Shown one piece after another: positions 8,546 through 64,000 of a DNA stretch of 64,000 nucleotides. The stretch is from a virus. Position 1 is the stretch's first letter; each line of letters begins with the position of its first letter. The notes beneath the pieces were generated by a model. That model was not told where the DNA came from and did no database searches. It saw only the letters and a program-made list of their open reading frames with translations. Made by a program: the position numbers and the translations under genes. The DNA lies in IMG/VR virus record IMGVR_UViG_3300029319_000006, positions 64,001 to 128,000 of that record. The stretch is one strand, 5' to 3'.

Positions 8546-8553
8546 TATTTATA
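8546..8553 (-). promoter_or_regulatory. T4-type late promoter TATAAATA
   Basis: Exact TATAAATA on the minus strand about 36 nt upstream of the 8510 start. Confidence 0.75.
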
Positions 8554-9226
8554 AGAAATATTTTTCTAATCCTTGATACATGTAAGATTGTTCCTGACAA
8601 ATTAAACAAAGAGTTTTTCTAGGATCATGTGCCAAATGATTTTTCACATACTTGTAGGGTGTTGCATCATTTTTCCATCTGAAATAATAATCATAATCAA
8701 ACTTTAAGTATTTACAAATTGATAAATGATTGTAAGAAAGATATCTATCCAAACCACTATATTTTATCATATAGTAATCTTTATTATCAATAAAGTTTTG
8801 AAATACATGTGTCAAGGTTTTTGGATACATTCCAATAACAGAAGTGTTTATTTTTGCATCAAACTCCCATAAAATATCCTGATGATGTTGAAGATCAGGA
8901 TTAATAGTAAGAATTTTGTTTGGTTGAATTCTTTTCAATATAGAATCTATAGAATTTTGTATTACAATGTCTAAATCAAAATATAAGGTTGGAGAATTCC
9001 AAGGTAAGTTAAACAGTTGAATCTTCCACCAAAAAGATTCTAAGTCTAAACTTAAATCCAACGGAATTGGTCTTAGTTTCCAATCTAACAAATTATCATC
9101 TGTTAAGCAATAAAAAGAAAATGGTAGGGAACAATTTTTCTCTACCATTTTATAAAGTCGATCTACTCGATCTGAAGTATACTTTGTACCGTATTTAATG
9201 CATACTATATTATAATGGGTTTTCAA
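8549..9226 (-). CDS. Glycosyltransferase, GT-A fold
   Basis: CIKYGTKY N-terminus, CLTDD, WWKIQLF, YFDLDIVI (DxD), INTSV; paralog of 52884..53579. Confidence 0.75.
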   Translation of the reverse strand: MKTHYNIVCIKYGTKYTSDRVDRLYKMVEKNCSLPFSFYCLTDDNLLDWKLRPIPLDLSLDLESFWWKIQLFNLPWNSPTLYFDLDIVIQNSIDSILKRIQPNKILTINPDLQHHQDILWEFDAKINTSVIGMYPKTLTHVFQNFIDNKDYYMIKYSGLDRYLSYNHLSICKYLKFDYDYYFRWKNDATPYKYVKNHLAHDPRKTLCLICQEQSYMYQGLEKYFL

Positions 9227-48472: not shown

Positions 48473-49195
48473 ATGTTATTTAAAACTATAATGATAAGAG
48501 TAAAAAATGATATAATTTCTGAATCTTATGCTGAATATTGTAAACAATCTTGGGAGTTTGCAAATATAAGATTTTATGATGCAGTTACTCCATCTCAAGT
48601 ACATTTACAAGATGGTAAATTAAAATTTGGAAGAAAAAACAATAAAGATTTAACTCCTACAGAAAAGGCATGTTTTTATAGTCAGTACAATTTATGGAAA
48701 AAGTGTGCTAAAGAAAGAATACCTATATTAGTGTTGGAACATGATGCATATTGTACTAATAGATCTGCAATTGAATTTAATCCTAATTTAGGTGTTCAGT
48801 TTTTTGGTCAACATGCTATGGAAGCTGTAATGTATCATCCAGATTTTTGTAATATAATAGTAGAACATTGTCAAGGTGATCATTGGGTTACAGGACCAAT
48901 GAAATTAGTAGATGCATTGTTAGGATATTTCAATCCTGGAGCTCAAAGTAGATATGGAATTCCTCATGCAAGATATCAAGGAAGATTGGCACCAGTTAAA
49001 TCTTGTATTGATGAGAGATATGGTACAACAGTAAAACATTTTAATGGTTCTACTACAGCAGATAGAGTAAAAGGAGCAGATAGAGAATTATTTAAAATGA
49101 TTGATCTTAGACCAACTAAAAGAAAAATGGAATTACGTTTAAGAGATGCAAAATTAGTAATTCCTTCTGAGCAGGAAGTAGTAACAGAAGATTAA
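48473..49195 (+). CDS. GT25-like glycosyltransferase
   Basis: FYDAVTP...TEKACFYSQYNLWKKC...PILVLEHDA. Confidence 0.7.
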   Translation: MLFKTIMIRVKNDIISESYAEYCKQSWEFANIRFYDAVTPSQVHLQDGKLKFGRKNNKDLTPTEKACFYSQYNLWKKCAKERIPILVLEHDAYCTNRSAIEFNPNLGVQFFGQHAMEAVMYHPDFCNIIVEHCQGDHWVTGPMKLVDALLGYFNPGAQSRYGIPHARYQGRLAPVKSCIDERYGTTVKHFNGSTTADRVKGADRELFKMIDLRPTKRKMELRLRDAKLVIPSEQEVVTED

Positions 49196-49797: not shown

Positions 49798-50966
49798 TAA
49801 GTAAATACCGTATTGTACTGTTGAGTACATCTAATAAATGTGGTGCACTTACTCAATTGTTTTAATTTGTTAGCTCCAACATATGTACATGTAGATCTTA
49901 CTCCACCAAGTATTTCTTGTATAGTAGATTCTACTCCACCTTTATATGGTACCATTACTTCTCTTCCTTCAGCAGCTCTGTAATCTTTCAATCCTCCAAA
50001 GTGTTTGTCATTTGCAGCTTGACTACTCATTCCATAAAATAGAACTTGTTTTTCAATTCTGTGAATTCTGTTTATAGAACCACCATGATGTAACATTGTT
50101 CTATGAGATCCTTCATCTAATATTTCACTAGTAATATATTCTTTTTGTACAATATTTCCACCACCTTCATCATGTCCTGCAAGCATACCACCTAACATTA
50201 CAAAATCTGCTCCTCCAGCAAATGCTTTAGCAATGTCACCTGGGCATGTACAGCCTCCATCAGCAATGATATGTCCACCAAGGCCATGAGCAGCATCAGC
50301 ACACTCCATAATAGCACTAAGCTGAGGATAACCAACACCAGTTTGAATACGAGTAGTGCAAACGCTCCCAGGACCGATCCCAACTTTAACAATATCTGCT
50401 CCACTTAAAATCAACTCCTCTGTCATTTCACCAGTTACTACATTTCCAGCAATAATAACTATATTAGGATAATTAAACCTAAATTTCTTTACAAAGTCAA
50501 CAAATCTTTCACTATAACCATTAGCAACATCAATACAAACATATTTTAATAATCTATTACATTGTTCATATACTTTACGAAACTTTTCATGGTCTTGGTC
50601 AGTTATTCCAATACTCATAGCAACATAATCTGCACGTAAACCAATAGGAACTTTATCAGTTCCTTCATGGTCAAAATAATCTACTAATTGTTGTACTGTA
50701 TAAGTTTTTACTAAACAAGTCATAATTCTTTGTTTAGCTAATGTGTCAGCCATTGTCATAGTACCAACACCATCCATATTACTAGCTATAATAGGAATGC
50801 CTCTATAATGTTTATCTTCTTGAAATTTAGGATGACCACTATACTCATAGTTCCGAAAAGTAAATCCACGAGAAAGTTCTATTTCTTTTCTACTTCCTAG
50901 AGTACTTCTTTTAGGACGGATTAATACATCCTTGAAGTCTAACTTCACATCTTGTTCTATTCTCAT
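49797..50966 (-). CDS. guaC: GMP reductase
   Basis: [72 protein letters not shown]. Confidence 0.95.
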
Positions 50967-51271
50967 TATACACCAAAACTCTCACCACATCCGCAACTTG
51001 CTGTTGCATTAGGATTAATCACTTTTAAATAAGATCCACCAAGTTCTTTAACATAATCAATTGTACATCCAAAAACAAACATTTCTGCCATTGGGTCTAA
51101 CCACAAATTCTCTACTGTTGGTTCCTTATCTGTTATTCCCCATTCGTATTGGAAACCAGCACAGCCTCCACCTCTAACCGAAAGTGATACATTTGGTTTT
51201 CCAACAGATTGTAAATACTCTTTTGCTGAGTCTGTCAGCTTAAGAGGTATTTTCAGGGTAGTGCCTTGCAA
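50966..51271 (-). CDS. iscA: A-type Fe-S carrier (IscA/HesB family)
   Basis: GGGCAGFQY...[14 protein letters not shown]. Confidence 0.9.
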
Positions 51272-51467
51272 TGGTTTCTATTATCTCCTGGTGTTTAGCT
51301 ATCTCACATATCTCTTTTTCTAAAGATTCAACAACACAACTATGTTCACCTATTCCGGCTGGAGCAGAAAGATAAATTTCTACATTTGCTTTATGCACTT
51401 CTATCATACCTTGAGCTTTTGCAATTATTGCGTCCAGCATCATTTTTCTTTTCTCGCTGAGGTTCAT
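51240..51467 (-). CDS. Conserved hypothetical protein
   Basis: HKANVEIYL..P.GIGEH motif; AGGAG ribosome binding site. Confidence 0.65.
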   Translation of the reverse strand: MNLSEKRKMMLDAIIAKAQGMIEVHKANVEIYLSAPAGIGEHSCVVESLEKEICEIAKHQEIIETIARHYPENTS

Positions 51468-51572
51468 TTTTTCTCCTATTTTTCACATCAGTTTTGTCAA
51501 TTGGTTCAACTTTTCTTGTATTTGTTACGTAATAATTATTAGGTGATATTTGATAAACATTTATCATAGTTG

Positions 51573-51580
51573 TATTTATA
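51573..51580 (-). promoter_or_regulatory. T4-type late promoter TATAAATA
   Basis: Exact match overlapping the upstream stop codon. Confidence 0.55.
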
Positions 51581-51872
51581 CCATTCTTAATTGTTTTACT
51601 GCACCCTCAACTCTTGGTGGATATCTTCCTAAAAATGTTCCTGCTTTTAAAGCATCTCTTACAATATGTTGTTTATGTATATGATCTATAATATCCCAAT
51701 TTTCATCTATTTTTCTAGCTAATCTATCAAACAATGCATCACTTAATATTGGATTATCTTCTTCATAGTACGCATAAGCTGCCATAAGATACCATGGTAT
51801 AGTCATATTAACATTATTATCAACTTTATCTAAACATTCCTTATCGTACAATTTGTTCTCCTCTTTCGGCAT
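51576..51872 (-). CDS. Stand-alone NAD-dependent ligase domain Ia-like protein
   Basis: AYYEEDNPILSDALFDRL matches the LigA domain Ia pattern YY..D.P.I.D..YD.L. Confidence 0.6.
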   Translation of the reverse strand: MPKEENKLYDKECLDKVDNNVNMTIPWYLMAAYAYYEEDNPILSDALFDRLARKIDENWDIIDHIHKQHIVRDALKAGTFLGRYPPRVEGAVKQLRMV

Positions 51873-52227
51873 AAAAAGCCTCCGTTAATTCTTTTTCTAT
51901 TCTATACGCTTCCTGTTCAAATGGTCTTTCATAATATGGTAAATCGGTACTCATATCTACCTTTCTCAGATATTGATTCACATGAACTAATTCATGGAAT
52001 AAAGTTGTAATGATTTCTAGTGGGGAGAGAGAACCGTCGAATCTGATCGTAAAATCACGATCATCTTCATGCATGCAATCGCCATTGACTCCTTGGTTAC
52101 GTATTCTAATAATATTTATAAAAATATTTTTATGTCTAGGAAATAAAGATTTACTACCAAATAATAATACATCTGATATAAGATCTTGTAATTTTTTAGT
52201 TCTTATATTTTCAAAACTAATTAACAT
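51841..52227 (-). CDS. Zincin-like metallopeptidase domain protein
   Basis: TLFHELVHVNQY (HExxH)...PFEQEAY. Confidence 0.7.
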   Translation of the reverse strand: MLISFENIRTKKLQDLISDVLLFGSKSLFPRHKNIFINIIRIRNQGVNGDCMHEDDRDFTIRFDGSLSPLEIITTLFHELVHVNQYLRKVDMSTDLPYYERPFEQEAYRIEKELTEAFYAERGEQIVR

Positions 52228-52232
52228 ACTTA

Positions 52233-52270
52233 CTTATCGCATATTAAAACACAAAAGTCAACAGTTAATT
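52233..52270 (-). promoter_or_regulatory. Early promoter AATTAACTG-TTGACT-N17-GATAAG
   Basis: Copy of the repeated motif; the -10 element ends 5 nt before the ATG at 52227. Confidence 0.75.
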
Positions 52271-52891
52271 TTTAGTTCTTATTTCTACATTTTTTCCGAC
52301 AGGAAATTTTATCTGGTTATGAGGATGATATAGTATCCACTGAACATTTTGAAACTCATTGAATATTCCTTGCCAGATTGGTCTCCATCTATCATTAAGT
52401 CTAACATTATTAGTAGCACCTCGATCAGAGTTCAATACAAAGTCTGTATAACTTCTCAGATTCATATCAAACAAACTATCGAATCCGTACATATGAATTT
52501 CATCACATTTTAATTTATTAGCTGTATAATGAGCAGCCATATGTCCACAATTAAAGTTAGTATATCCTTGACCTACTTGTCCTTCTTCACCTGGCATTCT
52601 TGCATATGGAGGTAACACAGTATAAAATTCTTTAATTTTATGACCAAATCTCATTTTAAAATTACCTTGATTTTGATCATACCAAACTTTAGGTCTATAT
52701 CCTAGAGTCCAATCATATTGAATTTGTACACTTCCCTCAGTTAATGCATTACACATTTTAAAATCTACTATACATGAAGTATAAAAATTTAAATGAAAAG
52801 GAGGTTGATTACACGCTATATGTAAACCTCTAGCTGGTTTATACATTGCAACTTGATCACCATTACCAATAATATGTGCTACTTTACTCAT
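52265..52891 (-). CDS. Putative Maf/sialyltransferase-like transferase
   Basis: AHIIGNG...ACN...VD...NCGHMA...IHMYGFDS pattern; end of the glycan cluster. Confidence 0.45.
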   Translation of the reverse strand: MSKVAHIIGNGDQVAMYKPARGLHIACNQPPFHLNFYTSCIVDFKMCNALTEGSVQIQYDWTLGYRPKVWYDQNQGNFKMRFGHKIKEFYTVLPPYARMPGEEGQVGQGYTNFNCGHMAAHYTANKLKCDEIHMYGFDSLFDMNLRSYTDFVLNSDRGATNNVRLNDRWRPIWQGIFNEFQNVQWILYHPHNQIKFPVGKNVEIRTKN

Positions 52892-53579
52892 TATGCCAAT
52901 ATTCTTTTATCCATTGTTGGGGTTCATATGTAGCCATTGGTGTTACTATAGTTTCTGTCATAGCTTGTATAATACTTGGTCTGCCATGAAAACAAATTAT
53001 AGACACATTCTCTTTAGGAGGTCTTGGATACACATTGTACTTATATGATTTTAATTTACCTGGATATTTGTTTTGAAGTAATGTTCTATTATAAGGATTC
53101 ATTTTACTACTAAGGTATTCTCCATCACCTCTAAATCTATCAATAACATGATCATATCCTAATACAAATTCATTCCAAAGATAATTGTTAGGATTAAAGT
53201 CCCAAGACATTACTCCTGTTTGTAACACTCCTTTTAAATGAGGTTGATGAGCATTAACTGCTCCAACATCTTCTATACCCATAAACCAACTATCATCTGT
53301 TAATAACCAATCTAGGTTTCCTGTAATCAAAGTATCTAAATCCAAATACACCATTCTTTCAGAAGTTTTTTGAGCAGGATCAAACATTTGTAATTTATTC
53401 CACCAACCTTCATATCCAGGTCTAAGAACTTTTACATCTATTCCACTTATTGCTTTATCACTATAACATACAAAATTATGATCTATTGTAGTGTTTCGTT
53501 TGACTGCAGCTTTTAAATTATAAACATAATCAATTGGAAATTTATTTCCCCAATAAACACATGCTACTGTTGGTTTCAT
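52884..53579 (-). CDS. Glycosyltransferase, GT-A fold
   Basis: CVYWGNKF..DYV..L, GWWNKLQMF, YLDLDTLI, GDGEY, SYK, ICFHGRP. Confidence 0.8.
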   Translation of the reverse strand: MKPTVACVYWGNKFPIDYVYNLKAAVKRNTTIDHNFVCYSDKAISGIDVKVLRPGYEGWWNKLQMFDPAQKTSERMVYLDLDTLITGNLDWLLTDDSWFMGIEDVGAVNAHQPHLKGVLQTGVMSWDFNPNNYLWNEFVLGYDHVIDRFRGDGEYLSSKMNPYNRTLLQNKYPGKLKSYKYNVYPRPPKENVSIICFHGRPSIIQAMTETIVTPMATYEPQQWIKEYWHNE

Positions 53580-54097
53580 TTTTTATCCTCCATAATTAAA
53601 GATACAATATCAATATCAATTGGTTTAGGTCTTGTATATTTTAAATCTATTATAGTACCAGCTCCTAAAACCTTAGCTCCTGTTTGTTGTATCAAAGATT
53701 TAGTAGCCATAATACTTCCGCCTGTTGCTACTAAATCATCTATAATTATACACCTACTTGTGTGTCCTAACAACCCTTTTTGTAATGTTAATTCTGATTG
53801 ACCATATTCTAAATTATATTTTTGATATAGTAACTTACCTGGATAAGCTGAGTTTGGTTTTCGGACCATTAAAAATGGAATATCTTTTATCATAGATAAT
53901 GCACTACCAACAACAAAACCTCTACTTTCAATACCAACTATATGAGTTGGTCCTTTAAATTTTTTTACTTTTTTAGCTAATTGGTAAATGCTATATCTGA
54001 ATGCACCACTACTAAACAAACTATTCATATCATAAAAATTTACACCTTTGACAGGATAGTTAGGTATAGTTCTAATATAATCTAATATTAGTTTCAT
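53576..54097 (-). CDS. apt: Adenine phosphoribosyltransferase
   Basis: IRTIPNYP.KGV.FYD, GIESRGF, VRK...PG, Y.LEYG, IIDDLVATGGS PRPP motif. Confidence 0.88.
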   Translation of the reverse strand: MKLILDYIRTIPNYPVKGVNFYDMNSLFSSGAFRYSIYQLAKKVKKFKGPTHIVGIESRGFVVGSALSMIKDIPFLMVRKPNSAYPGKLLYQKYNLEYGQSELTLQKGLLGHTSRCIIIDDLVATGGSIMATKSLIQQTGAKVLGAGTIIDLKYTRPKPIDIDIVSLIMEDKK

Positions 54098-54741
54098 ACT
54101 TCCTCAATAATATAATTTTCATTATACATATGTTTTGCTAGACAACCATACTGTCTTTGAATAGTAGAAAAATTTTCTTTTACTTCTACAGGCCATGGAT
54201 AATATTCTTCTAACCAAGGAAATGTTTGTAAGTTTAAAAATATATCTGTAGGAGCTCCTCTAGTAATTCCTGTTTCTACCATTATTTTAGCTGCATTAGG
54301 TTTGACTCTATATGCATGAGCACCTGGAAAATATGGTTTAGATACAAGTCTATTTCTTCCTAAAGCCATAGGAGTGTTAAATTTACCATATGATGGTTTT
54401 CCAAAAGATATACAACCATTGTGTTCAATTGAAGGGATATTTTCCATTATAACTGCATCATGTTCAAATATAGTAACTTCTTCTCCAGATTCCATACTAT
54501 ACATCCATAAAGATAAATGAGAACAAAAAGCTGCCATAGCATTATGTTCTCTTGAATATTGACTATTATTAAATTGTTCTGTGTTTATTTTATGTTCAGA
54601 AATAAAATCAAAACATGTATGAGGGGTGAATGCTTGATAATAATCTATTTCCAAACCAAACTTTTTTCCAGACTCTACACATCTATCAGCAGCTTGATGA
54701 GATTTATCATTATCAATTATAGTTATAACAAAGTGTTTCAT
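54094..54741 (-). CDS. GT25-like glycosyltransferase
   Basis: AFTP...AAFCSHLSLW...IFEHDA...GAHAY.V.P..A. Confidence 0.75.
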   Translation of the reverse strand: MKHFVITIIDNDKSHQAADRCVESGKKFGLEIDYYQAFTPHTCFDFISEHKINTEQFNNSQYSREHNAMAAFCSHLSLWMYSMESGEEVTIFEHDAVIMENIPSIEHNGCISFGKPSYGKFNTPMALGRNRLVSKPYFPGAHAYRVKPNAAKIMVETGITRGAPTDIFLNLQTFPWLEEYYPWPVEVKENFSTIQRQYGCLAKHMYNENYIIEEV

Positions 54742-54743
54742 AA

Positions 54744-55868
54744 TTATCCTTGGGTAGTAGAAGCAACTCCTTGTAATGTTGTGTAGTATGGATAAACTAC
54801 TCTCATTAAATGTCCACCCATCAATTGTTTACACATAAGAGCATCATTTGGCCACAATCCAACATCATCAATTATTTCAAATAATTTTCTAGCAGGACCT
54901 GGGTTCATTAAATATGCTGAATTACCAGCTAAACCTTGTGGTACAGATTTATCATCCACCCAAGGTACTTCTCTATAAAAATGCTTAGGTTTGTTTTCTC
55001 CTGTTACACCATTTTGTAACATATTCATAGCATTATCTAAAGAGCTATTCATATTAGGATTAAAAAGTTTCTTGTCAATTTGACTAGAAGCTATTTTTTC
55101 TCCTTGACTGTTGTGATGTACTCGTTTCATTAAATTAGCTTCTACTATTTCATCACCTACAACACTAGGTGAAAAAGCTCCACCCCAGCCATCAGGTATG
55201 ATTTTATTATCTGCTATACTATTACCAGAATTAAGAACTTTTTCATAGTATAAGTGTGCCTTTCGTGTTGCTCCTAATGGATTATTCAACCCTATAACAC
55301 AATTTCTTTTTTCCCAACCAGGTGGCATTTCTTGATAATCAAATTTTCTTGTAAAAATAGCATCATGTTCCAATACCATAATTGGTGTGTTTATCATTAA
55401 ACAGAATCTCCATACATTCATATGAGATAACAAACATGCAACTACTTTTTTTTGATCTTTTGCGCCATAAGCATGAACTTTCAAACCAGATCTTAAATCT
55501 ATTTTCTGTGTCCCTGGTTTTACAGGCCATGTCCAATCAGTAATTTTTTTACTAAAACTTTGTAATGCAGGTTGTAAAGTTTCAGGAGTAACAGCTGGAA
55601 TAATAAAAGGAGACAACTTAGAATTAGTAGCTTGTATTGATCTAATACATTTACGAGCAGCTGCAATACTATTTGTATTGTTTATGTCTGTAATGATACC
55701 AGCACATATTTCAGATTGAATTCTTCCATCTTGTGGACTAAGTCTTTCAAATTCAGGTACTAGATTTTTTTTAAATTGTTCTACAGTTTCAGCTTTTGAT
55801 AAATTCTCACTTCGTCGAATTTTATCTTCATTTTCTCTAGCTGTTGCACCTTTTGTAACATCTACCAT
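54744..55868 (-). CDS. GT25-like glycosyltransferase with insertion
   Basis: AVTP...ACLLSHMNVW...PIMVLEHDA...GLAGNSAYLMNP...WPNDA. Confidence 0.75.
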   Translation of the reverse strand: MVDVTKGATARENEDKIRRSENLSKAETVEQFKKNLVPEFERLSPQDGRIQSEICAGIITDINNTNSIAAARKCIRSIQATNSKLSPFIIPAVTPETLQPALQSFSKKITDWTWPVKPGTQKIDLRSGLKVHAYGAKDQKKVVACLLSHMNVWRFCLMINTPIMVLEHDAIFTRKFDYQEMPPGWEKRNCVIGLNNPLGATRKAHLYYEKVLNSGNSIADNKIIPDGWGGAFSPSVVGDEIVEANLMKRVHHNSQGEKIASSQIDKKLFNPNMNSSLDNAMNMLQNGVTGENKPKHFYREVPWVDDKSVPQGLAGNSAYLMNPGPARKLFEIIDDVGLWPNDALMCKQLMGGHLMRVVYPYYTTLQGVASTTQG

Positions 55869-55886
55869 AAGTTTTCCTTTTTATTG

Positions 55887-55894
55887 TATTTATG
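55887..55894 (-). promoter_or_regulatory. Late promoter variant CATAAATA
   Basis: NATAAATA 19 nt upstream of the 55868 start. Confidence 0.4.
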
Positions 55895-56603
55895 GTTCTA
55901 TTAATCCACGTTCTACAAGTTCCTCATAATTTTTCATCTTTGCTCCATATACTCCTTGTGAATCATCATAAGGTTTTTTTCTTATGTGAATCATATAACA
56001 ATTTTCTACATTAGGTAAGTAATGACTATAACACCATTTTTCATCTAAACATTTATCGTATATACTATAACCTAAATTTCCATGTACGGCAAGCATATGC
56101 ATAATACCTTCTTCAACATATGGATGTGGACTTATTTGTCTCATCATTGCTCGAGTTACTGGATTAATTTGAGCTCTAAATGCTTGTCTTACTTCTCTTG
56201 GTAATACATAACAAGCTCCAGACCATAATTGAACATCTCGACTAGTAAAACCTGGAAACAGTTGAACAAAGGCTGGATGTTGTCTATTTTTATGAACATC
56301 ATCATAACATGCAACTCCTTTAGCTTCAAATACATTTTCTGTCATCCCTTTACGAACAAACATATCTGAGTCTAACATAACAACAGTATCATATTCATCA
56401 TATTCTTCATTAAGCATAGCAAGTTTTTGACATTGCATTCGAAGATCTTCCATAAATGGTTTACCATCTAATAGTTTATATTCCGCACCTAAACTTTTTG
56501 CATACCTTTCTATATTAGCTACACTTTTTTCTACAATCGGATGTGAATTTTGACCCAAGTATTTTTCATGTGGTTGAAAATGTTGAAGAATAATATTTTT
56601 CAT
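55890..56603 (-). CDS. Glycosyltransferase, GT-A fold
   Basis: YAKSLGAEY..L, QKL, YDTVVMLDSDMF, IH. Confidence 0.7.
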   Translation of the reverse strand: MKNIILQHFQPHEKYLGQNSHPIVEKSVANIERYAKSLGAEYKLLDGKPFMEDLRMQCQKLAMLNEEYDEYDTVVMLDSDMFVRKGMTENVFEAKGVACYDDVHKNRQHPAFVQLFPGFTSRDVQLWSGACYVLPREVRQAFRAQINPVTRAMMRQISPHPYVEEGIMHMLAVHGNLGYSIYDKCLDEKWCYSHYLPNVENCYMIHIRKKPYDDSQGVYGAKMKNYEELVERGLIEP

Positions 56604-57283
56604 AATATTTCTAATCCATATATTTCTCTTACTACTTGAGGTATATTATTTTTTCTTGCATTACAAAAGTGTAAAAGAGTAGCATCTTTATGAGCCTCTT
56701 CAGGTAAATCACAAAATCTATCATGTGGTAATTGTAATTCCTTATGATCTTTTAATATTCCAGTTATATGAAATAGATGGTGAGTCAATATCTCATCATT
56801 AGGTGGTAATCCATCAGAAGATTTGTTATTATCTATTATATCCTTTTTTAGAGCTTTTCTCAACTCTTTTCTGTATTCTTTTTTTAATTTTACACAATTA
56901 CCAAAGAACATAGGTTGACCTTTATGATATAAGGTAGGCCATTTTCTACCATTTTTACTAGCATCTACTTTAGACATACCTTTTAAATGTAATCTACCAA
57001 TACCTTCATAATTAAATATATTATCTATATTCTTTGTAGCAATCATATCCATATCTAATAATAACACATCATCATATGAATCAAATTTTTGACTAAGTAC
57101 ATATAATTTTTGTAGTATTAACCAAGGCTTTTCTTGTTTCTGTTTTACCATATCCATCATTGGATAATCTTTTAGTAAAAGATATTCACTATTAATTGAT
57201 TTAGCATATTTCCTTATAGTTTGTTCTGCCATTGATGTCCATTGAGGAAAATCACCACACCAATGTTGTACAATTAAATTCAT
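56600..57283 (-). CDS. Glycosyltransferase, GT-A fold (paralog of neighbour)
   Basis: YAKSINSEY.LL, QKL, YDDVLLLDMDM, LLHF. Confidence 0.7.
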   Translation of the reverse strand: MNLIVQHWCGDFPQWTSMAEQTIRKYAKSINSEYLLLKDYPMMDMVKQKQEKPWLILQKLYVLSQKFDSYDDVLLLDMDMIATKNIDNIFNYEGIGRLHLKGMSKVDASKNGRKWPTLYHKGQPMFFGNCVKLKKEYRKELRKALKKDIIDNNKSSDGLPPNDEILTHHLFHITGILKDHKELQLPHDRFCDLPEEAHKDATLLHFCNARKNNIPQVVREIYGLEIL

Positions 57284-57879
57284 CTTGAAAACACCATCAC
57301 ATATCCTCCATGTCTTGCAAGACCTGGACCTTTGCAGATTGTATCTTTTAACTTAAATCCATATAATTTAATTATATCTGTAATTTCTGATCCTACAGCA
57401 TTTAAAGGATCTTGTTGAGTAACACCTTTCATATTCTGATAATCAGACCATTCTATAGCTAATATACCAAACTCTGAAACTTGATTACACCATGTCTGTA
57501 ACGTAAGTTTTACATCATTAGTATGATCTAATGAATTAGAATAAACAATATCATGCTGGCCAATCCATTCATCTTTTTGTTTATTAAAATCCCAAACTTC
57601 TGTCATAGGAGCATACTTAGCTTTTTCACAAATCTCTGTACCAACAATCTCACATTCTGGTAAATAAAAATTAAAATGTCTTTGTTCTTCTCCACTTCTT
57701 GTTCCATGACATAAGACACTTGATATATTAATATTATTTTGTTTTGTATATTCAACTATTTTTTCAATAGTAGCTTGTCTAACATAAACTGTTCTATTAT
57801 ATTTGAAATCTGTAGTCTTTTTTTGAGAATTTATATAATCATTATAATCTTGATATTCATAACTTTTCATAATTTCCAT
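57280..57879 (-). CDS. SAM-dependent methyltransferase
   Basis: VLCHGTRSGEE, VGTEI, WDFN, DIVYSNSLDH. Confidence 0.7.
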   Translation of the reverse strand: MEIMKSYEYQDYNDYINSQKKTTDFKYNRTVYVRQATIEKIVEYTKQNNINISSVLCHGTRSGEEQRHFNFYLPECEIVGTEICEKAKYAPMTEVWDFNKQKDEWIGQHDIVYSNSLDHTNDVKLTLQTWCNQVSEFGILAIEWSDYQNMKGVTQQDPLNAVGSEITDIIKLYGFKLKDTICKGPGLARHGGYVMVFSR

Positions 57880-58673
57880 TCCGTTACTGGTAAGTTAACA
57901 ACTCTATCAATTTTTTCAGGGTCAAACTTATTAGCTCCTGCTAATTGTACATGAACAAAATTACTTTGATCTCTAAGATCTACTACGGGTCTTGGATCTT
58001 TTGTATCTGGTTGATAATGTACACTACTGTTCCATTTATAATCCATTGTTATCCAATTCATTTTAGCTACTTCTAACATAGCATGTAGATATGGTTGATC
58101 ACAAGTATAAAATTCTGGTAATCCTGAATTTTGAATCATAGAAGTATATAATTGAAATTTTAGAAATTTATATTTTGCTTTTAACATTCCAGGTTTAGAA
58201 TAAACTACAACTCCTGAATTATATACTTTAGGTAAACCAGATTTTGTTCTTGGAAGTTTCACGTTAAAGAATGCTTCTATAATTTTTACCCATCTTTCAT
58301 CATTCATATTATTAATACCAGCAATAGTATGTTTAGTTCTTACATCAGGAGCATTCCATTCTTCACATATTCCTATATCAATTGGTGTTCCTTTAAATTG
58401 ATCAAATATATTTTCTGTTAATCCTATTACTGGAAATACATCAGTATCTACATATAAAACATAATCATAATGTTCAGACATATAATCATTAAATATAGGT
58501 TTAAATGATCCATAATGAGAGGAAAAAGAACCTAAATTAGTAACAAACTTAGGATTATGTTCGTATACATATTCAGAATTTATTTCCTCAGCATAACGTC
58601 TCATACATTTTACGCTATGTTCACTTTCGCTGGTTTCTTCACCATCTCTGTATTGATATATTAATGTCCTCAT
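57867..58673 (-). CDS. Glycosyltransferase, GT-A fold
   Basis: YDYVLYVDTDVF, YNSGVVV, DQPYL, KWN, FVH. Confidence 0.8.
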   Translation of the reverse strand: MRTLIYQYRDGEETSESEHSVKCMRRYAEEINSEYVYEHNPKFVTNLGSFSSHYGSFKPIFNDYMSEHYDYVLYVDTDVFPVIGLTENIFDQFKGTPIDIGICEEWNAPDVRTKHTIAGINNMNDERWVKIIEAFFNVKLPRTKSGLPKVYNSGVVVYSKPGMLKAKYKFLKFQLYTSMIQNSGLPEFYTCDQPYLHAMLEVAKMNWITMDYKWNSSVHYQPDTKDPRPVVDLRDQSNFVHVQLAGANKFDPEKIDRVVNLPVTEWKL

Positions 58674-59365
58674 TAGAAACCCTTGTATCTTTTTTGATAA
58701 TTATGTATTTGTTGAACTATATCTTTTTTAATAAAAACTGCATCAATTTGATTCCATATTCCTTTTCTTATTGCTACATGATGTACTCCTGATGGAACAA
58801 AATCATGTTCATATAATGTTTCTATATATTGATCAAAACGTGGAGCTCCTTTGTTATACCACATAATAGGCATTTCAGTTATAATAGCTTTTGTATGTTT
58901 CAATGCTTCTTTGCTACCATTAAATATATCTATTTCTGATCCTTGAGTATCTATTTTTATAAAATCAGGTTGAGGTAATTTGTTTTGTTTAATTAAACTA
59001 TCTAAAGTAATAGTTGTTACATCTATACTATGATTTTCTAAGTAGTTATCAGTCATTTCTTGATATACGCTGTTACCGGTAGTTTGTTCTCTATCATTAT
59101 CTGATAAGTAAAATTTTACTTCTTTATCATCTTTATCAGACAACACAGCATATATTGAATGACTATGGTTATCATCTAATAATTTATTTCCTGCAAAAGC
59201 CTCAATCAAGTAAAACATAGTTTCTCTTGGAAATTTATGTTTCCATTTTCTGTACCATTTTCCTTCATTAGCTCCTATGTCATACACATTCTTAAATGTT
59301 ATTCCAGCATCTAACAATTCTTGAAGAATAAATTCTAATGTTCTTTCTGGGGATCCTGTAATCAT
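58673..59365 (-). CDS. FkbM-family methyltransferase
   Basis: YDIGANEG, TLDS, DFIKIDTQGSE. Confidence 0.88.
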   Translation of the reverse strand: MITGSPERTLEFILQELLDAGITFKNVYDIGANEGKWYRKWKHKFPRETMFYLIEAFAGNKLLDDNHSHSIYAVLSDKDDKEVKFYLSDNDREQTTGNSVYQEMTDNYLENHSIDVTTITLDSLIKQNKLPQPDFIKIDTQGSEIDIFNGSKEALKHTKAIITEMPIMWYNKGAPRFDQYIETLYEHDFVPSGVHHVAIRKGIWNQIDAVFIKKDIVQQIHNYQKRYKGF

Positions 59366-59366
59366 T

Positions 59367-60509
59367 TTACCACTCCGGTGATGTTAGTATATTATCAGGA
59401 TCTAAATTATCTTTCATCTTTTCAGCTATAAATTTAATATCATCTATAAGAGTATTTGAAAGAGTAATTGGTTCAAAACCTAAACTACGAAGACCTTGAT
59501 TATCTACTTCTAATTCATTTTCTTTTAATTCTTTTCTTGGATTAGGTACATATTGAATATTCGCACCATATTTTTCAGCACATAATTCTGCTAATTCCTT
59601 TACATTTCTTACTTCAGCAACTTGATTAAATATTCTTACTTTATTTCCTTCAGGGATACTTTCTACTGCTAATTTTATACAATTAGCTGTATCTTGAATA
59701 TGAATAAAAGCTCTAGTCTGACCTCCAGTTCCATAAACTGTTATATCATTACCAGTTGCTGCCTGAGAAATAAATCTATTTAATACTGTTCCATAGATAC
59801 CATCATAATCAAATCTGTTCACTAATTTTGGATCTAACATAGTTTCTTCTGTTTGAGTTCCCCAACATATACCTTGATGAAGATCAGTAATTTTGATACC
59901 CCAGTTTTTATTATAGAACTGAAATAGGATTTGGTCAAGAGATTTTGTCATATGATAAACACTACCAGGATTAGTTGGATAAAGTACATCAACATCTTTT
60001 TGTGTTGAATTAACTTTTATATTTAAATATCCTTCTGGTATTTTACCAAAATCTTTAGAATATCCATATACACCCATAGTACCTAAATGAACTAAATGAC
60101 ATTCAGGAACAATATTAACAATAGCATTTAGAATATTATGTGTAGTCGTAATATTGTTTTCAACAGTATATCTTCTATGCATTTCAGAAAGCATTGAATA
60201 TGGAGCAGATCTTTGTTCTGCAAAATGAATTATAACTTCTGGTTTCATTTTTTGAACATAATTCGTAAATCCTAAATAATTTATAGCAACATCAATCTGT
60301 CCAAATTTTAATGGCATACCATGTCTTAAAGCTGCATCTATTCTATTCTCCATTGATTCAATATTAGTAAGAGAATTACTATGTGTCTCTTTATCAATTT
60401 TCCTTCTGGAAAAATTATCTAATATGTGAACATCATGTCCAGCTTTAGCTAACTTCAATGAAGTTGGCCAACCACAAAAACCATCTCCTCCTAAAACTAA
60501 AATTCTCAT
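59367..60509 (-). CDS. sqdB: UDP-sulfoquinovose synthase
   Basis: GGDGFCGWPT, DNFSRR, HFAEQRSAPYSM, HLGTMGVYG, PGSVYHMTK, TDLHQG, NRFDYDG.YGTVLNRF, YGTGGQTRAFIHI. Confidence 0.93.
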   Translation of the reverse strand: MRILVLGGDGFCGWPTSLKLAKAGHDVHILDNFSRRKIDKETHSNSLTNIESMENRIDAALRHGMPLKFGQIDVAINYLGFTNYVQKMKPEVIIHFAEQRSAPYSMLSEMHRRYTVENNITTTHNILNAIVNIVPECHLVHLGTMGVYGYSKDFGKIPEGYLNIKVNSTQKDVDVLYPTNPGSVYHMTKSLDQILFQFYNKNWGIKITDLHQGICWGTQTEETMLDPKLVNRFDYDGIYGTVLNRFISQAATGNDITVYGTGGQTRAFIHIQDTANCIKLAVESIPEGNKVRIFNQVAEVRNVKELAELCAEKYGANIQYVPNPRKELKENELEVDNQGLRSLGFEPITLSNTLIDDIKFIAEKMKDNLDPDNILTSPEW

Positions 60510-60712
60510 TTTAAATCTGTACCTTCCTCATGGCATGATAATTGAATTGAATAATATTGATTACTTTCATGCCAAGACCAATTATCTAAATTAGCCATTG
60601 CTTCACATTGTTCTAATGGCATAGGTTGATTAAGAACATATTGATTTCCTATATAAACCCAATCCGTTCCTGTATTTCCCCATAAAGAAAATACTAATAA
60701 ATATTTTACCAT
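60506..60712 (-). CDS. Small hypothetical protein
   Basis: Overlapping-coupled ORF with a hydrophobic N-terminus and two Cys. Confidence 0.5.
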   Translation of the reverse strand: MVKYLLVFSLWGNTGTDWVYIGNQYVLNQPMPLEQCEAMANLDNWSWHESNQYYSIQLSCHEEGTDLK

Positions 60713-61668
60713 TGATTGCTCCCATAATAATTTCTATACCATTGTACAAATTCTTTTACACCTATTTCAATAGGAGTTTTAGGATTATATCCTAACTGTC
60801 TTATTTTAGTTGTATCAGACCATGTTTCTTTAGCATCTGCATCATGTTTTGGTCTCATAGTTTTTGCAGATGTCTTACCTAATTCTTTTTCGATTATTTC
60901 TATAAAATCTAATAGCTGAACTTGTCTACCATTACCTATATTATATATTTCTCTTTTACTCATGTTATTTGATATGATGTGTATACCGTCTACTATATCA
61001 TCAATATATGTAAAATCTCTTTTCATATCTCCATGATTAAATACTTCAATAGGTTTATCATTAAGTATTTTATCAGTGAATCCAAATAAAGCCATATCAG
61101 GTCTACCCCATGGTCCATAAACTGTAAAGAACCTTAGACCTATTGCATTAGGTATTTTAGATATATGAAACATATGTTCATTCAATTGTTTAGTATATCC
61201 ATAAGGACTTAGCTGAGGTCCTAACTTATCTGATTCTTTCCAAGGTAAAGGATTACCATGCATAACACAAGATGTTGAAGCATAAATTACATTTTCAACA
61301 TCATGTTTTTCTAATACTTGTATCAAATTTAAAGTACCAGTAACATTATTATCAACATACTCTTGAGCGTTATCCATAGAATATCTGACTCCAGCCATAG
61401 CTGCTAAATGTATAACCAAATGAGGTTTTATTTTTTTAATATATTTGTCTAAACCATGTAAATCGTATAAGTCAAGATTCTTACATTTAATTTCATATTT
61501 TTCTTTTAAATATTTGGCTCTGTCTCTTTTCAATTTAGGATCATAATACATATTAAAATTATCAAATCCATAAACTTCATATTCACCACTTTCTTCTAAA
61601 TTAATAGCTGTATGAAATCCAATGAATCCAGCCATTCCTGTTATTACTACTTTAAGAGCCATTAACAT
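60706..61668 (-). CDS. UDP-glucuronate 4-epimerase-like SDR
   Basis: TGMAGFIGFH, DNFNMYYDPKLK, HLAAMAGVRYS, GLRFFTVYGPWGRPDMA, RDFTYIDDIV. Confidence 0.88.
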   Translation of the reverse strand: MLMALKVVITGMAGFIGFHTAINLEESGEYEVYGFDNFNMYYDPKLKRDRAKYLKEKYEIKCKNLDLYDLHGLDKYIKKIKPHLVIHLAAMAGVRYSMDNAQEYVDNNVTGTLNLIQVLEKHDVENVIYASTSCVMHGNPLPWKESDKLGPQLSPYGYTKQLNEHMFHISKIPNAIGLRFFTVYGPWGRPDMALFGFTDKILNDKPIEVFNHGDMKRDFTYIDDIVDGIHIISNNMSKREIYNIGNGRQVQLLDFIEIIEKELGKTSAKTMRPKHDADAKETWSDTTKIRQLGYNPKTPIEIGVKEFVQWYRNYYGSNQW

Positions 61669-62440
61669 CCTCCATTAATTGTTTAATATTTTCTCCTCTA
61701 TTAGGCAATAAATCTTTCAAAAAGAAATGTACAAAATTGCATTCGTTTATTCTAGTATTAGCAGTATACAACCCATTCCATTTCCAGTCAAGGTTTTTTA
61801 TTTTCATGTTTTCTTCTCTAATCCATGTATTAAGAAGTGTCTGATCTGTCGACCATTTCCATGCTCCTTGACCATCTATAAAATCTTTAAACCTAGGTCT
61901 TCTTAAAAACTCTGTAGGTGTTTGACCTTTTAGATATGGAAGTATTGATTGGTTCATAACCATTACACCCATATTCATAAACTCACCACCTAATTGATTC
62001 CATTTCCAATCTACAGTTTTAATATTATGATACTGCATTTGTGAATAATTAATTATTTTTGCCTTATACTGTTCTGTGATAGGCATTTCTCTTTCTACTA
62101 CAGCAGCAAAATGATAATCACTAGGCACGCTATCAAAAATGGACTCACTGACAGAGCTCCGAACAAATACATCAGCGTCAATAACACAGACACTGTCATA
62201 GGTTTCAAGATAATTGAACGAATTTTCTTTCTCATAGATTGGAAGGAAGCCACCATATTTTTCATAAGATTCATTACTCCTATTTGTTGCGAACACATCA
62301 GGTTTAATTCTAAGAATTGGTTGGCGCTGTATTGCGTAATAAGCACCTATTCTACTTGCATATTGTTTTACTGAATCGGTACAACGATCGTATAGATTGG
62401 ATCTATTTCCCGTGTACACTTGGTAGATCAATGTCTTCAT
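61652..62440 (-). CDS. Glycosyltransferase, GT-A fold
   Basis: YDSVCVIDADVF, NMGVMVMN, DQTLLN, KWN, FVHFF. Confidence 0.8.
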   Translation of the reverse strand: MKTLIYQVYTGNRSNLYDRCTDSVKQYASRIGAYYAIQRQPILRIKPDVFATNRSNESYEKYGGFLPIYEKENSFNYLETYDSVCVIDADVFVRSSVSESIFDSVPSDYHFAAVVEREMPITEQYKAKIINYSQMQYHNIKTVDWKWNQLGGEFMNMGVMVMNQSILPYLKGQTPTEFLRRPRFKDFIDGQGAWKWSTDQTLLNTWIREENMKIKNLDWKWNGLYTANTRINECNFVHFFLKDLLPNRGENIKQLMEDVNGS

Positions 62441-63050
62441 AATCTAAGCCTATAAAATGTCTTTTTGGAGTGTAATGTTCTATGGTATTTAGTCCTTCAA
62501 TATTTACTTGTTCTATAAAGTAAAAATCATTCATTTCTTTTTGTTTTTTAGTATTCATAAAATTAGCTATATGACCATCACTATTCATTTTTATTGTTTT
62601 ACATATTGCATTGGAAATTAATCTTTCAGCAAAAAGAGGAGTAATATAATATCCAGATCCTACTGATAGATCTTTAGTACCATCTTCTCTTCTTATATAA
62701 GATAAAATTTTATATCCTTCAAACAAAATATCTTGTTCTATTGGTTTTATTAATTTTGAATCGTGTTCAATAATTATCATAGGTCTCCATTCTCTAAGAC
62801 ATTTGCACCACAAATCAAAATGGCTATACCACACGGCTTTTTCAGTAGCAGAAAATTCTCTATCTTTCCTTGCTACTGTGCCTTGTTTTAAACCAAATTT
62901 TAGTTGATTTCTATAAACTAAATCTTTAGCAGTAGTTGCTTCGTGATAAAATAAATCATAATCTCTCCAACTGTGTTTTACATGATTCACATATAATTCA
63001 GAAAGAGGATGTTCTGACATCCTTATCATAAATATTTTAAATTTTTTCAC
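62403..63050 (-). CDS. GT25-like glycosyltransferase
   Basis: TEKAVWYSHFDLWCKC...PMIIIEHDS...GYYITP..A..L; paralog of 48473..49195. Confidence 0.7.
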   Translation of the reverse strand: MKKFKIFMIRMSEHPLSELYVNHVKHSWRDYDLFYHEATTAKDLVYRNQLKFGLKQGTVARKDREFSATEKAVWYSHFDLWCKCLREWRPMIIIEHDSKLIKPIEQDILFEGYKILSYIRREDGTKDLSVGSGYYITPLFAERLISNAICKTIKMNSDGHIANFMNTKKQKEMNDFYFIEQVNIEGLNTIEHYTPKRHFIGLDYEDIDLPSVHGK

Positions 63051-63736
63051 TACATCCCATGAACATTTATTGGAAATGCATATCTTGCCATATTCATTTC
63101 TGATCCAAACTTAACAGTATTTAAAAAATCACCATGATTTTCTTCTGCTATCCATCTTTTCCATGATCTCGATAAAAACTCATCAAGAGGAATATCGATA
63201 CCAATTGGTGAATTTTTATACAAATTAGATTTACATATTTGATTAACTAAAGACCAAGCCATTTTAGGTGTAATAAAAGTCCCAAAAGAAAATAAAGCCT
63301 TGTTGGTCACAGAACCTTTAGCTAAAGGCCAAAATTTAAAGTATCTTGTATCCATGAATATTTTATCATCAATAAAATCTAAACTACCATATACAAAGGG
63401 ATCAGATAAAAAATTTCTATGAAGTTTAGCCCCCTGTTGAGTTATTATTACAGCATCATCTTCAAGCCTTCTTATTTTTCTTAAAATGTTAACATAAGAA
63501 AACCATTCTGATATTTTTTGTTTACCCAACATTTTAAATAAAGGAATTTGGTAATCATATCCACCTTGATCTAATTTAGATATCCAAGCATATTCTTGTA
63601 CAATACAATTTGTAAATCCTGATGCATAAAAGGAATTTTTTGTTAAATCAATAGCTCTTTGACCTTCAAATGTATAGGGGTCTCCAATAATATATACTTT
63701 AATATCTGGATCTAAAAAATGGCTTTTGTAGGTCAT
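63050..63736 (-). CDS. Divergent GT25-like or hypothetical protein
   Basis: EWFSY...VIITQQGA...GTFITP..A..L parallels the GT25 neighbours but lacks EHD. Confidence 0.4.
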   Translation of the reverse strand: MTYKSHFLDPDIKVYIIGDPYTFEGQRAIDLTKNSFYASGFTNCIVQEYAWISKLDQGGYDYQIPLFKMLGKQKISEWFSYVNILRKIRRLEDDAVIITQQGAKLHRNFLSDPFVYGSLDFIDDKIFMDTRYFKFWPLAKGSVTNKALFSFGTFITPKMAWSLVNQICKSNLYKNSPIGIDIPLDEFLSRSWKRWIAEENHGDFLNTVKFGSEMNMARYAFPINVHGM

Positions 63737-64000
63737 CTGTAATCTTCTAAACTAAATTTTGTTCCATACATCTTATAGTTTTTACGATCGTGATTAGTAT
63801 ACACTAAAACTTCAGGGTCATCAACTAAAAAATCACAAGTTTTACAAAAGTCTGGATAATCACCATCTCTATGTTGTTGTCTAAGTTTATTGTATTTATC
63901 TCCATTCCATATGTCAACTATTTTATTTTCACTACCATGTCCTAAAACAGCTTCATCATCTCTTCCAAGCACTTGACAACAAGGGTGAACAGCTCCAGTT
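63733..64000 (-). CDS. C-terminal SPASM domain of a radical SAM protein, 5' end outside the window
   Basis: Frame continues upstream as TGAVHPCCQVLG...IWNG..Y..LR..H...CKTCD. Confidence 0.75.
   Translation of the reverse strand, partial: TGAVHPCCQVLGRDDEAVLGHGSENKIVDIWNGDKYNKLRQQHRDGDYPDFCKTCDFLVDDPEVLVYTNHDRKNYKMYGTKFSLEDYR

Follow-up and report, generated by a model that had tools for sequence, protein, structure and literature searches.

The subject of this analysis is a glycan-biosynthesis island in a 64,000-nucleotide stretch of viral DNA (the window), which corresponds to positions 64001-128000 of the IMG/VR record IMGVR_UViG_3300029319_000006, a linear record of 146,762 bp with a CheckV completeness of 84%. 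The record derives from an uncultured, marine, T4-like myovirus with a GC content of ~30%: T4-type RNase H, SegE, DUF6267 and a class II ribonucleotide reductase are encoded just past the window end, and DNA polymerase B, UvsX and a DnaB-like helicase elsewhere in the 146.7-kb record. Judged by its 464-aa baseplate wedge protein, which shares 33% identity with its counterpart in 'Phage C48C1' and 26-29% with those in Pelagibacter phages, the phage is distant from cultured phages.

Between 52265 and 64000 every credible open reading frame (ORF) lies on the minus strand, and the run goes on for 1.7 kb beyond the window end to ~65727, into the adjoining 18.7 kb (coordinates prefixed L002; those prefixed G000:C1 refer to the whole record). 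As it reaches a GT9-like gene and the 82-aa gene u82 in this adjoining stretch, the island is ~13.5 kb long instead of the 12 kb given by an earlier note on this DNA (the sequence-only reading). The coupled minus-strand run described in that note was borne out, with 13 of the 17 gene junctions overlapping and a biggest gap of 21 nt, and the island comprises about 20 soluble enzymes in one translationally coupled run. The whole 147-kb phage encodes ~12 glycosyltransferases.

Four of the island's glycosyltransferases, at 55890-56603 (GT8a), 56600-57283 (GT8b), 57867-58673 (GT8c) and 61652-62440 (GT8d), form one GT8-like family that is held together by blastp links and by hhalign probabilities of 97-100%. 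Their Pfam matches to GT8 or Mannosyl_trans3 models are weak or borderline, and only GT8d matches PF01501, at 23.5 bits against a gathering cut-off of 24.3, so that all four are labelled GT8-like and not proven GT8. Each carries a DxD motif (DSD, DMD, DTD or DAD) at residues 76-90 which is at least 95% conserved within its family; in GT8d, D88 and D90 are invariant. A second group is GT25-like. The PF01755 cut-off of 24 bits is passed by the gene at 54744-55868 (GT25b, 374 aa with an additional N-terminal region; 39.1 bits) and by one at 48473-49195 (35.5 bits), which lies outside the island in inverted orientation on the plus strand, while the genes at 54094-54741 (GT25a) and 62403-63050 (GT25c) fall slightly under it and are tied to the group by hhalign at 97-99%. 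The gene at 52884-53579 encodes a 231-aa glycosyltransferase of phrog_1962 with a conserved DxD.

Towards the head of the island, u82 (L002:2479-2727), which is kept in relatives, lies upstream of the GT9-like gene (L002:1692-2522), and this in turn lies upstream of the gene for a radical SAM/SPASM enzyme (L002:733-1692), whose C-terminal part occupies 63733-64000 and which is recognised by PF04055, PF13186 and a CxxxCxxC motif. The GT9-like label has ESM Atlas as its sole basis, the AlphaFold2 (AF2) model having a pLDDT of 44.5. A GT9-like paralogue is found at G000:C1:30909-31739 (L124:10909-11739), with 25% identity over 129 residues and the sequence TATAAATA, the motif of T4-type late promoters, ending 6 nt before its start. 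Next to the radical SAM gene, u228 (63050-63736, 228 aa) has no match in Pfam, PHROGs or NCBIfam and no hhalign link to the GT25 or any other island family. Profile searches with the alignments of GT8d and u276 gave no match among PDB sequences.

SqdB (59367-60509), a UDP-sulfoquinovose synthase of the SqdB/SQD1 type, aligns end to end with Arabidopsis SQD1 (1qrr; 290 bits, residues 2-380), starts with MRILVLGGDGFCG, which contains the Rossmann motif GxxGxxG, and keeps the catalytic Thr and Y-H-x-x-K, with GTMGVYG and YHMTK aligned to GTMGEYG and YHLSK of SQD1. The catalytic residues of SQD1 are T145, Y182, H183 and K186. On NCBIfam NF041015 the protein scores 351 bits, far above the runner-up family (57 bits) and under the equivalog cut-off of 575, and it is therefore filed as SqdB-type, not as a proven equivalog. 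It is 61-64% identical to bacterial SqdB of Neptuniibacter, Halomonas, Rhodobacteraceae and Luminiphilus, and no close SqdB was found in GenBank phages. Compared with the SQD1/SqdB/Agl3 synthases, which it resembles over the full length and in the catalytic motifs, the phage copy stands apart in residing in a transferase operon without a recognised sulfolipid synthase.

The gene at 60706-61668 encodes a short-chain dehydrogenase/reductase (UGAE) that is, by its sequence, of the UDP-glucuronate 4-epimerase type. It scores 247 bits to 5u4q, 159 bits to the B. cereus UDP-glucuronate 4-epimerase 6zl6 and 110 bits to MoeE5, and has S-T-S (ASTSCV) in place of the T-D-E of dehydratases, together with YGYTK and RFFTVYGPWGRPDMA; 5u4q was named a dehydratase by its depositors, yet reads SSSSVYG. 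Of the two putative methyltransferases, the one at 58673-59365 belongs to the FkbM family (PF05050, 60.7 bits; TIGR01444, 66.7 bits). The other, u199 (57280-57879, 199 aa), has neither a Pfam match nor a PDB sequence match in a profile search, but looks like a class-I S-adenosylmethionine-dependent methyltransferase from its ESM Atlas features (0.96-0.99) and structure (TM 0.83-0.90) relative to Methyltransf_11 clusters. Elsewhere in the genome, a short gene resembling nucleotide-sugar dehydrogenases (310 aa) and one for an RfaE-domain-II/TagD-like nucleotidyltransferase stand beside UvsX in the replication module (G000:C1:25218-26592; L124:5218-6592) and may supply UDP-glucuronate and ADP-heptose to the island. 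In C48C1, genes annotated 'UDP-glucose dehydrogenase' and 'nucleotide-sugar epimerase' adjoin a DNA repair protein gene.

The last gene of the island, at 52265-52891, encodes a 208-aa protein that serves as a conserved anchor of the locus in relatives and that, in a confident AF2 model (pLDDT 87), shares the catalytic fold of Maf proteins and sialyltransferases. In VIA comparisons the model reaches a Z of 10.9 to the Maf flagellin glycosyltransferase 5mu5, with 166 of the 208 residues aligned, and of 9.9 to the sialyltransferase Cst-I (2p56); the ten best Foldseek hits are all sialyltransferases (GT42/GT29), weak at E 5e-3 or weaker. This fold is common to Maf and the GT42 sialyltransferases (5mu5, 2p56, 1ro7), and the GNG motif at the start of the protein presumably resembles that of CstII. 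By contrast, the phage anchor is only one third the size of Maf and has no sequence-level membership in PF01973 (E 0.22; 11.7 bits against a cut-off of 34.6), and its alignment found no sialyltransferase or other match among PDB sequences in a profile search. Nor is there a KdsB/NeuA-type cytidylyltransferase or other gene for CMP-sugar synthesis in the 146.7-kb record, so the CMP-sugar donor of a Maf/GT42-type enzyme would have to come from the host. The homologues of the Maf-like protein form 1,567 clusters without a name, all of ~200 aa, and the family looks phage-only, occurring on contigs of up to ~160 kb among the 120 listed.

Set against these results, the gene families listed in the sequence-only reading hold up well. 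Its five or so GT-A enzymes correspond to the four GT8-like enzymes and the other DxD glycosyltransferase at 52884, its three to four GT25-like enzymes to three in the island and a fourth at 48473 outside it, and SqdB, the epimerase (through 6zl6 and the missing T-D-E motif) and the radical SAM/SPASM gene were all borne out as to type. Its Maf/sialyltransferase-like protein stands as a predicted fold and fails as a sequence match, and of its two methyltransferases the first is backed by Pfam and NCBIfam, the second by ESM Atlas only. An adenine phosphoribosyltransferase gene at 53576-54097 (NF002636, 148 bits, cut-off 125) had been overlooked. The anionic sugars predicted in the sequence-only reading gain support from SqdB, the epimerase and the dehydrogenase-like gene, and methylation of the glycan from the methyltransferase genes.

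The comparison with relatives shows which parts of the island are constant. The Maf-like gene is present in at least 519 IMG/VR stretches, of which the best 80 were analysed, and SqdB at 58-77% identity in 40 IMG/VR loci; gene presence was compared in 120 related loci, selected by SqdB or by the Maf-like gene. Their skeleton reads RNase H - DUF6433 - u76 - (u200) - u82 - GT8d - [variable centre] - GT25a - (one more gene) - Maf-like - zincin peptidase - ligase-Ia domain. GT8d, the conserved transferase of the head end, is found in 36 of the 40 SqdB-selected loci and in most Maf-selected loci, while GT25a is the conserved neighbour of the Maf-like gene. The 76 distinct complete islands measure 3.9-13.6 kb, with the present island near the upper end, and none of them lacks a GT8-like or a GT25-like gene. 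The ends (u82-GT8 and GT25-Maf) are fixed, and it is in the centre that methyltransferases, a sulfotransferase, SqdB, the epimerase or Glf replace one another. In the 58 islands that were chosen via the Maf-like gene and are thus unbiased for SqdB, methyltransferases, which belong to four or more unrelated families, occur in 51 (one or more per island), a sulfotransferase (PF03567) in 18, the epimerase and UDP-galactopyranose mutase in six each and SqdB in three. SqdB and the sulfotransferase occur together in two of the 39 islands that have either (all 76 islands considered); as the sampling is biased, no statistical claim is made that they are strict alternatives. SqdB nearly always adjoins GT8-like genes, with GT8c usually directly after it, which makes GT8c a candidate sulfoquinovosyltransferase, and the GT9-like and radical SAM genes always co-occur. 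The closest relatives, L003 and L004, have almost the entire gene set in common with the present island. The island is therefore one case of a widespread cassette of a type known in such phages, in which the sulfo-sugar content is new, and its fixed ends and hypervariable centre fit diversifying selection on an exposed glycan.

The preferred reading of the island, to which a probability of roughly 0.45 is given, is that of a soluble glycan assembly line that decorates the tail-fibre and baseplate proteins of the phage in the cytoplasm. The best-supported product is a short, O-methylated, anionic glycan built from UDP-sulfoquinovose, UDP-galacturonate and host sugars. SqdB would make the UDP-sulfoquinovose and the epimerase the UDP-galacturonate, probably fed by the nucleotide-sugar dehydrogenase-like gene of the replication module. 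Nine to ten glycosyltransferases (GT8-like, GT25-like, phrog_1962, GT9-like and Maf-like) and two methyltransferases, translationally coupled and presumably co-transcribed, would then act in steps, with the conserved core of head-end GT8, GT25 and Maf-like enzymes beginning and ending a short chain. The swappable centre would set its decoration, which in most relatives would be O-methylation and in some also a negative charge conferred by SqdB, a sulfotransferase or uronic acid, and the GT8-like enzyme next to SqdB would transfer the sulfoquinovose. As acceptors we propose the serines of [F/V/A/Y]-D-S-[A/D] motifs in proteins on the outside of the virion. The enzymes could be made from a sigma-70-type promoter ahead of the structural proteins and last until assembly, as in chloroviruses.

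The hints towards a virion acceptor come from several sides. The first is the Maf-type fold predicted for the anchor protein. The second is a paralogue of the phrog_1962 transferase that is encoded within the tail-fibre block (8549-9226). The third is the GT25-like paralogue at 48473, which appears to stand behind a conserved late promoter: TATAAATA lies 22 nt upstream of it and is kept in three of four informative relatives. The fourth concerns the putative acceptor motif itself, which was counted in ORFs of at least 300 aa in three genomes. D-S-[A/D] occurs 48 times against 18.3 expected in the present phage and 33 times against 19.3 in C48C1, the only GenBank phage with the Maf-like gene, but 14 times against 15.1 in HTVC008M, which does not have it. 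In the present phage the excess is centred on two large proteins encoded in the structural block, one with 14 motifs where 1.6 are expected and the other with 7 where 0.7 are expected, and in C48C1 the fibre connector alone has 15 motifs against 3.2 expected. The residue that precedes the motif is hydrophobic in 22 of 38 sites. The excess tracks the Maf-like gene, which is suggestive only.

Several points weigh against a virion acceptor. Virion glycosylation is here a prediction from sequence, as are the glycan and the modified protein, and three genomes are few for a correlation between motif and gene. Since the Z-scores to Maf and to Cst-I are effectively tied, the fold of the anchor protein cannot separate a protein from a lipid-linked acceptor, and GT8, GT25, GT42-like and GT9 are also classical families of the lipooligosaccharide (LOS) and lipopolysaccharide (LPS) core. 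Moreover, the published reading of such phage genes is one of host O-chain or cell-wall modification (PMC7029224, PMC12801897).

Transcription adds to these points. The only perfect sigma-70 consensus of the region (TTGACA-17-TATAAT) lies in a 144-nt gap upstream of RNase H (window 68320-68463; L002:5320-5463), and relatives hold TTGAC/TTGCAC-N17-TATAAT at the same site, so that a conserved sigma-70-type promoter heads the island operon. The -10 box at this site shares bases with an AGGAGG-ATG, from which a small ORF of coiled-coil-like character extends into the start of RNase H, and the gap may be coding as well as, or instead of, a promoter. On the sense strand of the island no terminator-like site was found except for a weak stem of 5 bp (54929-54916) that lacks a clear T run, and the next early-type element comes after the Maf-like gene, at 52233-52270. 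A conserved T4-type late promoter is missing: TATAAATA precedes a core gene in 0 of 76 islands, and its sole copy in the present island is within u82, 76 nt before the GT9-like gene. Over the 577 kb of the 76 islands it occurs 22 times on the sense strand against 78.5 expected and 3 times on the antisense strand against 56.5 expected, the antisense form making no stop codon; this depletion may reflect selection against stray late promoters. A further motif, CATAAATA, stands in the 21-nt gap at 55869-55889 before the gene at 54744, but is not conserved, as judged by tightly overlapping relatives, which are without it.

The sigma-70-type promoter and the lack of a late promoter mark the island as an early or middle operon by position. 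Early-only expression, which the sequence-only reading had set against its own proposal, is thus partly indicated, and the placement weakens the case for a virion acceptor but does not refute it. As a criterion, early expression is weak because the soluble glycosyltransferases of PBCV-1 are products of early genes and yet glycosylate the late capsid protein (PMC5408694).

Membrane topology bears on the acceptor less than the sequence-only reading had assumed. By hydropathy no island protein has a transmembrane helix, the top 19-residue value being the Rossmann beta1 strand of the epimerase, which supports a soluble stepwise pathway. The absence of a flippase, polymerase or membrane transferase, claimed for the window, extends to the whole 146.7-kb record at its 84% completeness, in which neither wzx/wzy nor an ABC exporter, a polymerase or an initiating phosphoglycosyltransferase was recognised, the flanking sequence included. 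The step from there to cytoplasmic acceptors does not follow, because GT8, GT25, GT42-like and GT9 enzymes act peripherally on the inner membrane to extend the LOS/LPS core and the host exports the product, so that a missing phage flippase is uninformative on the acceptor. The sole multi-pass membrane protein of the record (334 aa, 7068-8072 of the genome, 5-9 helices) is encoded ~110 kb from the island and has no match in Pfam, PHROGs or NCBIfam; it was rejected as a glycan exporter on its size and its context between PstS-like and BMP-like binding proteins. At G000:C1:5972-9032 (L123), the genes for a BMP-family binding protein, this membrane protein and the PstS-like phosphate-binding protein are adjacent, and the trio is probably a nutrient-uptake module of the phage.

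The strongest competitor, a serious one though less probable than a virion acceptor, is a remodelling of the host surface in which the enzymes work from the cytoplasmic side of the inner membrane to extend the lipid A-core (LOS), host MsbA/Lpt exports the altered, methylated and anionic product, and superinfection or the sticking of progeny to debris is blocked. Enzymes of the GT8, GT25, GT42 and GT9 families extend LOS in Haemophilus, Neisseria and Campylobacter, where no dedicated flippase is needed. Each of these families also has a protein-modifying branch, represented by glycogenin, collagen galactosyltransferase, Maf and the TibC-type heptosyltransferases, and family names can therefore not decide the acceptor. 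LOS remodelling is further favoured by Pfam matches that fall on 'LPS biosynthesis' models, by the sigma-70-type promoter without a conserved late promoter, by the RfaE-domain-II-like and dehydrogenase-like genes in the replication module, and by the published reading of pelagimyophage and cyanomyophage glycosyltransferase clusters (PMC7029224, PMC12801897). It does not account for a Maf-like family that, among the matches listed, sits only on phage-sized contigs, for paralogues that lie within the fibre block or follow a late promoter, or for a D-S-[A/D] excess in virion proteins that, in the three genomes compared, goes with the Maf-like gene. LOS cores, as far as we are aware, seldom have sulfoquinovose, sulfation or heavy O-methylation, and we know of no lytic marine phage that has been shown to rebuild LOS. 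If the island did so, it would represent a lytic-phage form of seroconversion that alters receptor landscapes in the sea.

A remodelling of membrane lipids, in which SqdB feeds sulfoquinovosyl diacylglycerol or another glycolipid and thereby spares phosphorus in a phosphate-starved host, is very improbable. Such a role would suit an intact SqdB with 61-64% identity to its bacterial counterparts, the PstS-like protein on the same phage and the GT8-like genes flanking SqdB, as the sulfolipid transferase SqdD of Rhodobacter is glycogenin-like (GT8). However, hidden Markov models of the phage families match no ORF beside cellular sqdB (E > 0.1; Neptuniibacter, Halomonas, Rhodobacteraceae, Luminiphilus), the island has no recognisable GT4 gene of the SqdX/SQD2 type and no recognisable acyltransferase gene, and SqdB occurs in just three of the 58 islands chosen regardless of it, amid methyltransferases and other transferases. 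Hypermodification of phage DNA by glycosylation of modified bases, in the style of T-even phages, is very improbable, since the T4-like ancestry and the early-type expression near replication genes that would suit it are outweighed by the lack of a thymidylate-synthase-type hydroxymethylase in the record (84% complete, so that absence is not final) and by ten transferases plus O-methyltransferases, which exceed any DNA glycosylation system known to us. What probability remains belongs to an acceptor outside the virion, LOS, sulfolipid and DNA.

Among known systems, the 'LPS gene' regions of pelagimyophages and cyanomyophages (S-SCSM2R, S-SCSM1, P-SSM2; PMC7029224, PMC12801897) come closest. 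They likewise belong to marine T4-like phages, are rich in GT8/GT25-type transferases, accompanied by epimerases and dehydrogenases of nucleotide sugars, and are placed in plastic regions between core modules; one cyanomyophage with 13 glycosyltransferases was termed a possible record (PMC12801897). The GT8-rich 'LPS' genes of pelagimyophages were read as modifying the host O-chain (Zaragoza-Solas 2020, PMC7029224), and the glycosyltransferase genes in these papers are explained by O-chain modification or DNA glucosylation. These papers make no mention of a fixed u82-GT8 ... GT25-Maf-like skeleton, SqdB, sulfotransferases or a Maf-fold gene, and the baseplate protein of the present phage is only 26-33% identical to those of the cultured relatives. 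PBCV-1 (PMC5408694) offers a parallel in that the virus encodes GT-A enzymes which are soluble and cytoplasmic, have a methyltransferase attached and are expressed early although the acceptor is late, with atypical attachment sites. It differs in being a eukaryotic virus with N-linked capsid glycans and scattered genes in place of one operon. Phage-encoded transferases glycosylate the phage's own virion proteins in the mycobacteriophages Che8, Corndog and Myrna (Freeman 2023, via PMC12363180). These cassettes are small, belong to siphoviruses of Actinobacteria, act on capsid and tail-tube proteins and are not known to have sulfo-sugar or uronate genes. A putative viral UDP-sulfoquinovose synthase has been mentioned in a Mu-like virus (PMC7785012), and a literature search turned up no publication in which sulfoquinovose is connected with phage glycosyltransferases and virions.

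If decoration of the virion is extended from this phage to its relatives, a large clade of marine T4-like phages may coat its fibres and baseplate with a strain-variable, often sulfonated, sulfated and O-methylated O-glycan at [F/V/A/Y]-D-S-[A/D] sites, with the phage-only Maf-fold transferase as the key enzyme. This generalisation is tentative, with the odds against it. If true, no virus before would have had a glycoprotein system based on a sulfo-sugar, and no abundant ocean phage a glycan coat on its virion. Much of the killing of bacteria in the ocean is due to T4-like phages, and the covering of their host-recognition organs decides which hosts can be infected. With fibres under a charged, methylated and rapidly diversifying sugar coat, host range and virion stickiness would not be predictable from protein sequence alone, and both the abundant Maf-like family with its 1,567 clusters and the Asp-Ser motif excess would be explained. 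Whichever acceptor is used, phage-made UDP-sulfoquinovose might be a new input of one of the major organosulfur sugars of the sea.

Some features of the island are peculiar to the present genome. The adenine phosphoribosyltransferase, a purine-salvage gene that probably stands outside the glycan pathway, is missing from all 120 related loci, L003 and L004 included. It behaves as a clean presence/absence cassette, with a contig from run X11 having 16 other letters in place of 53569-54101 while other samples keep the gene. The 68-aa ORF at 60506-60712 has no family match and is an insert specific to this genome, as it is not present between UGAE and SqdB in L003 or L004. Just upstream of u76, many relatives have a GC-rich hairpin with varying self-complementary stems and no clear T run (L046:2251-2288, L056:2638-2679, L093:3136-3193), which may act in processing, stability or weak termination at the island head; in the present genome there is no gap between DUF6433 and u76.

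Near-identical copies of the island (window 54000-63900; 62-100% of sampled words) are found in marine metagenomes that come from four or more studies and date from 2014 to 2025, and long metagenome contigs span 50514-60381 with ~1% differences from the window. This shows that the island genotype persisted in the sea. The same island, in the order GT8d-SqdB-GT8c-u199-GT8b-GT8a-GT25-...-Maf-like, is also borne by a 44-kb contig (L127, JAHEGS010000004.1) titled 'MAG: Bacteroidetes bacterium'. The contig is thus of phage origin and was binned with a Bacteroidetes metagenome-assembled genome, and the binning is either an error or a faint hint of the host.

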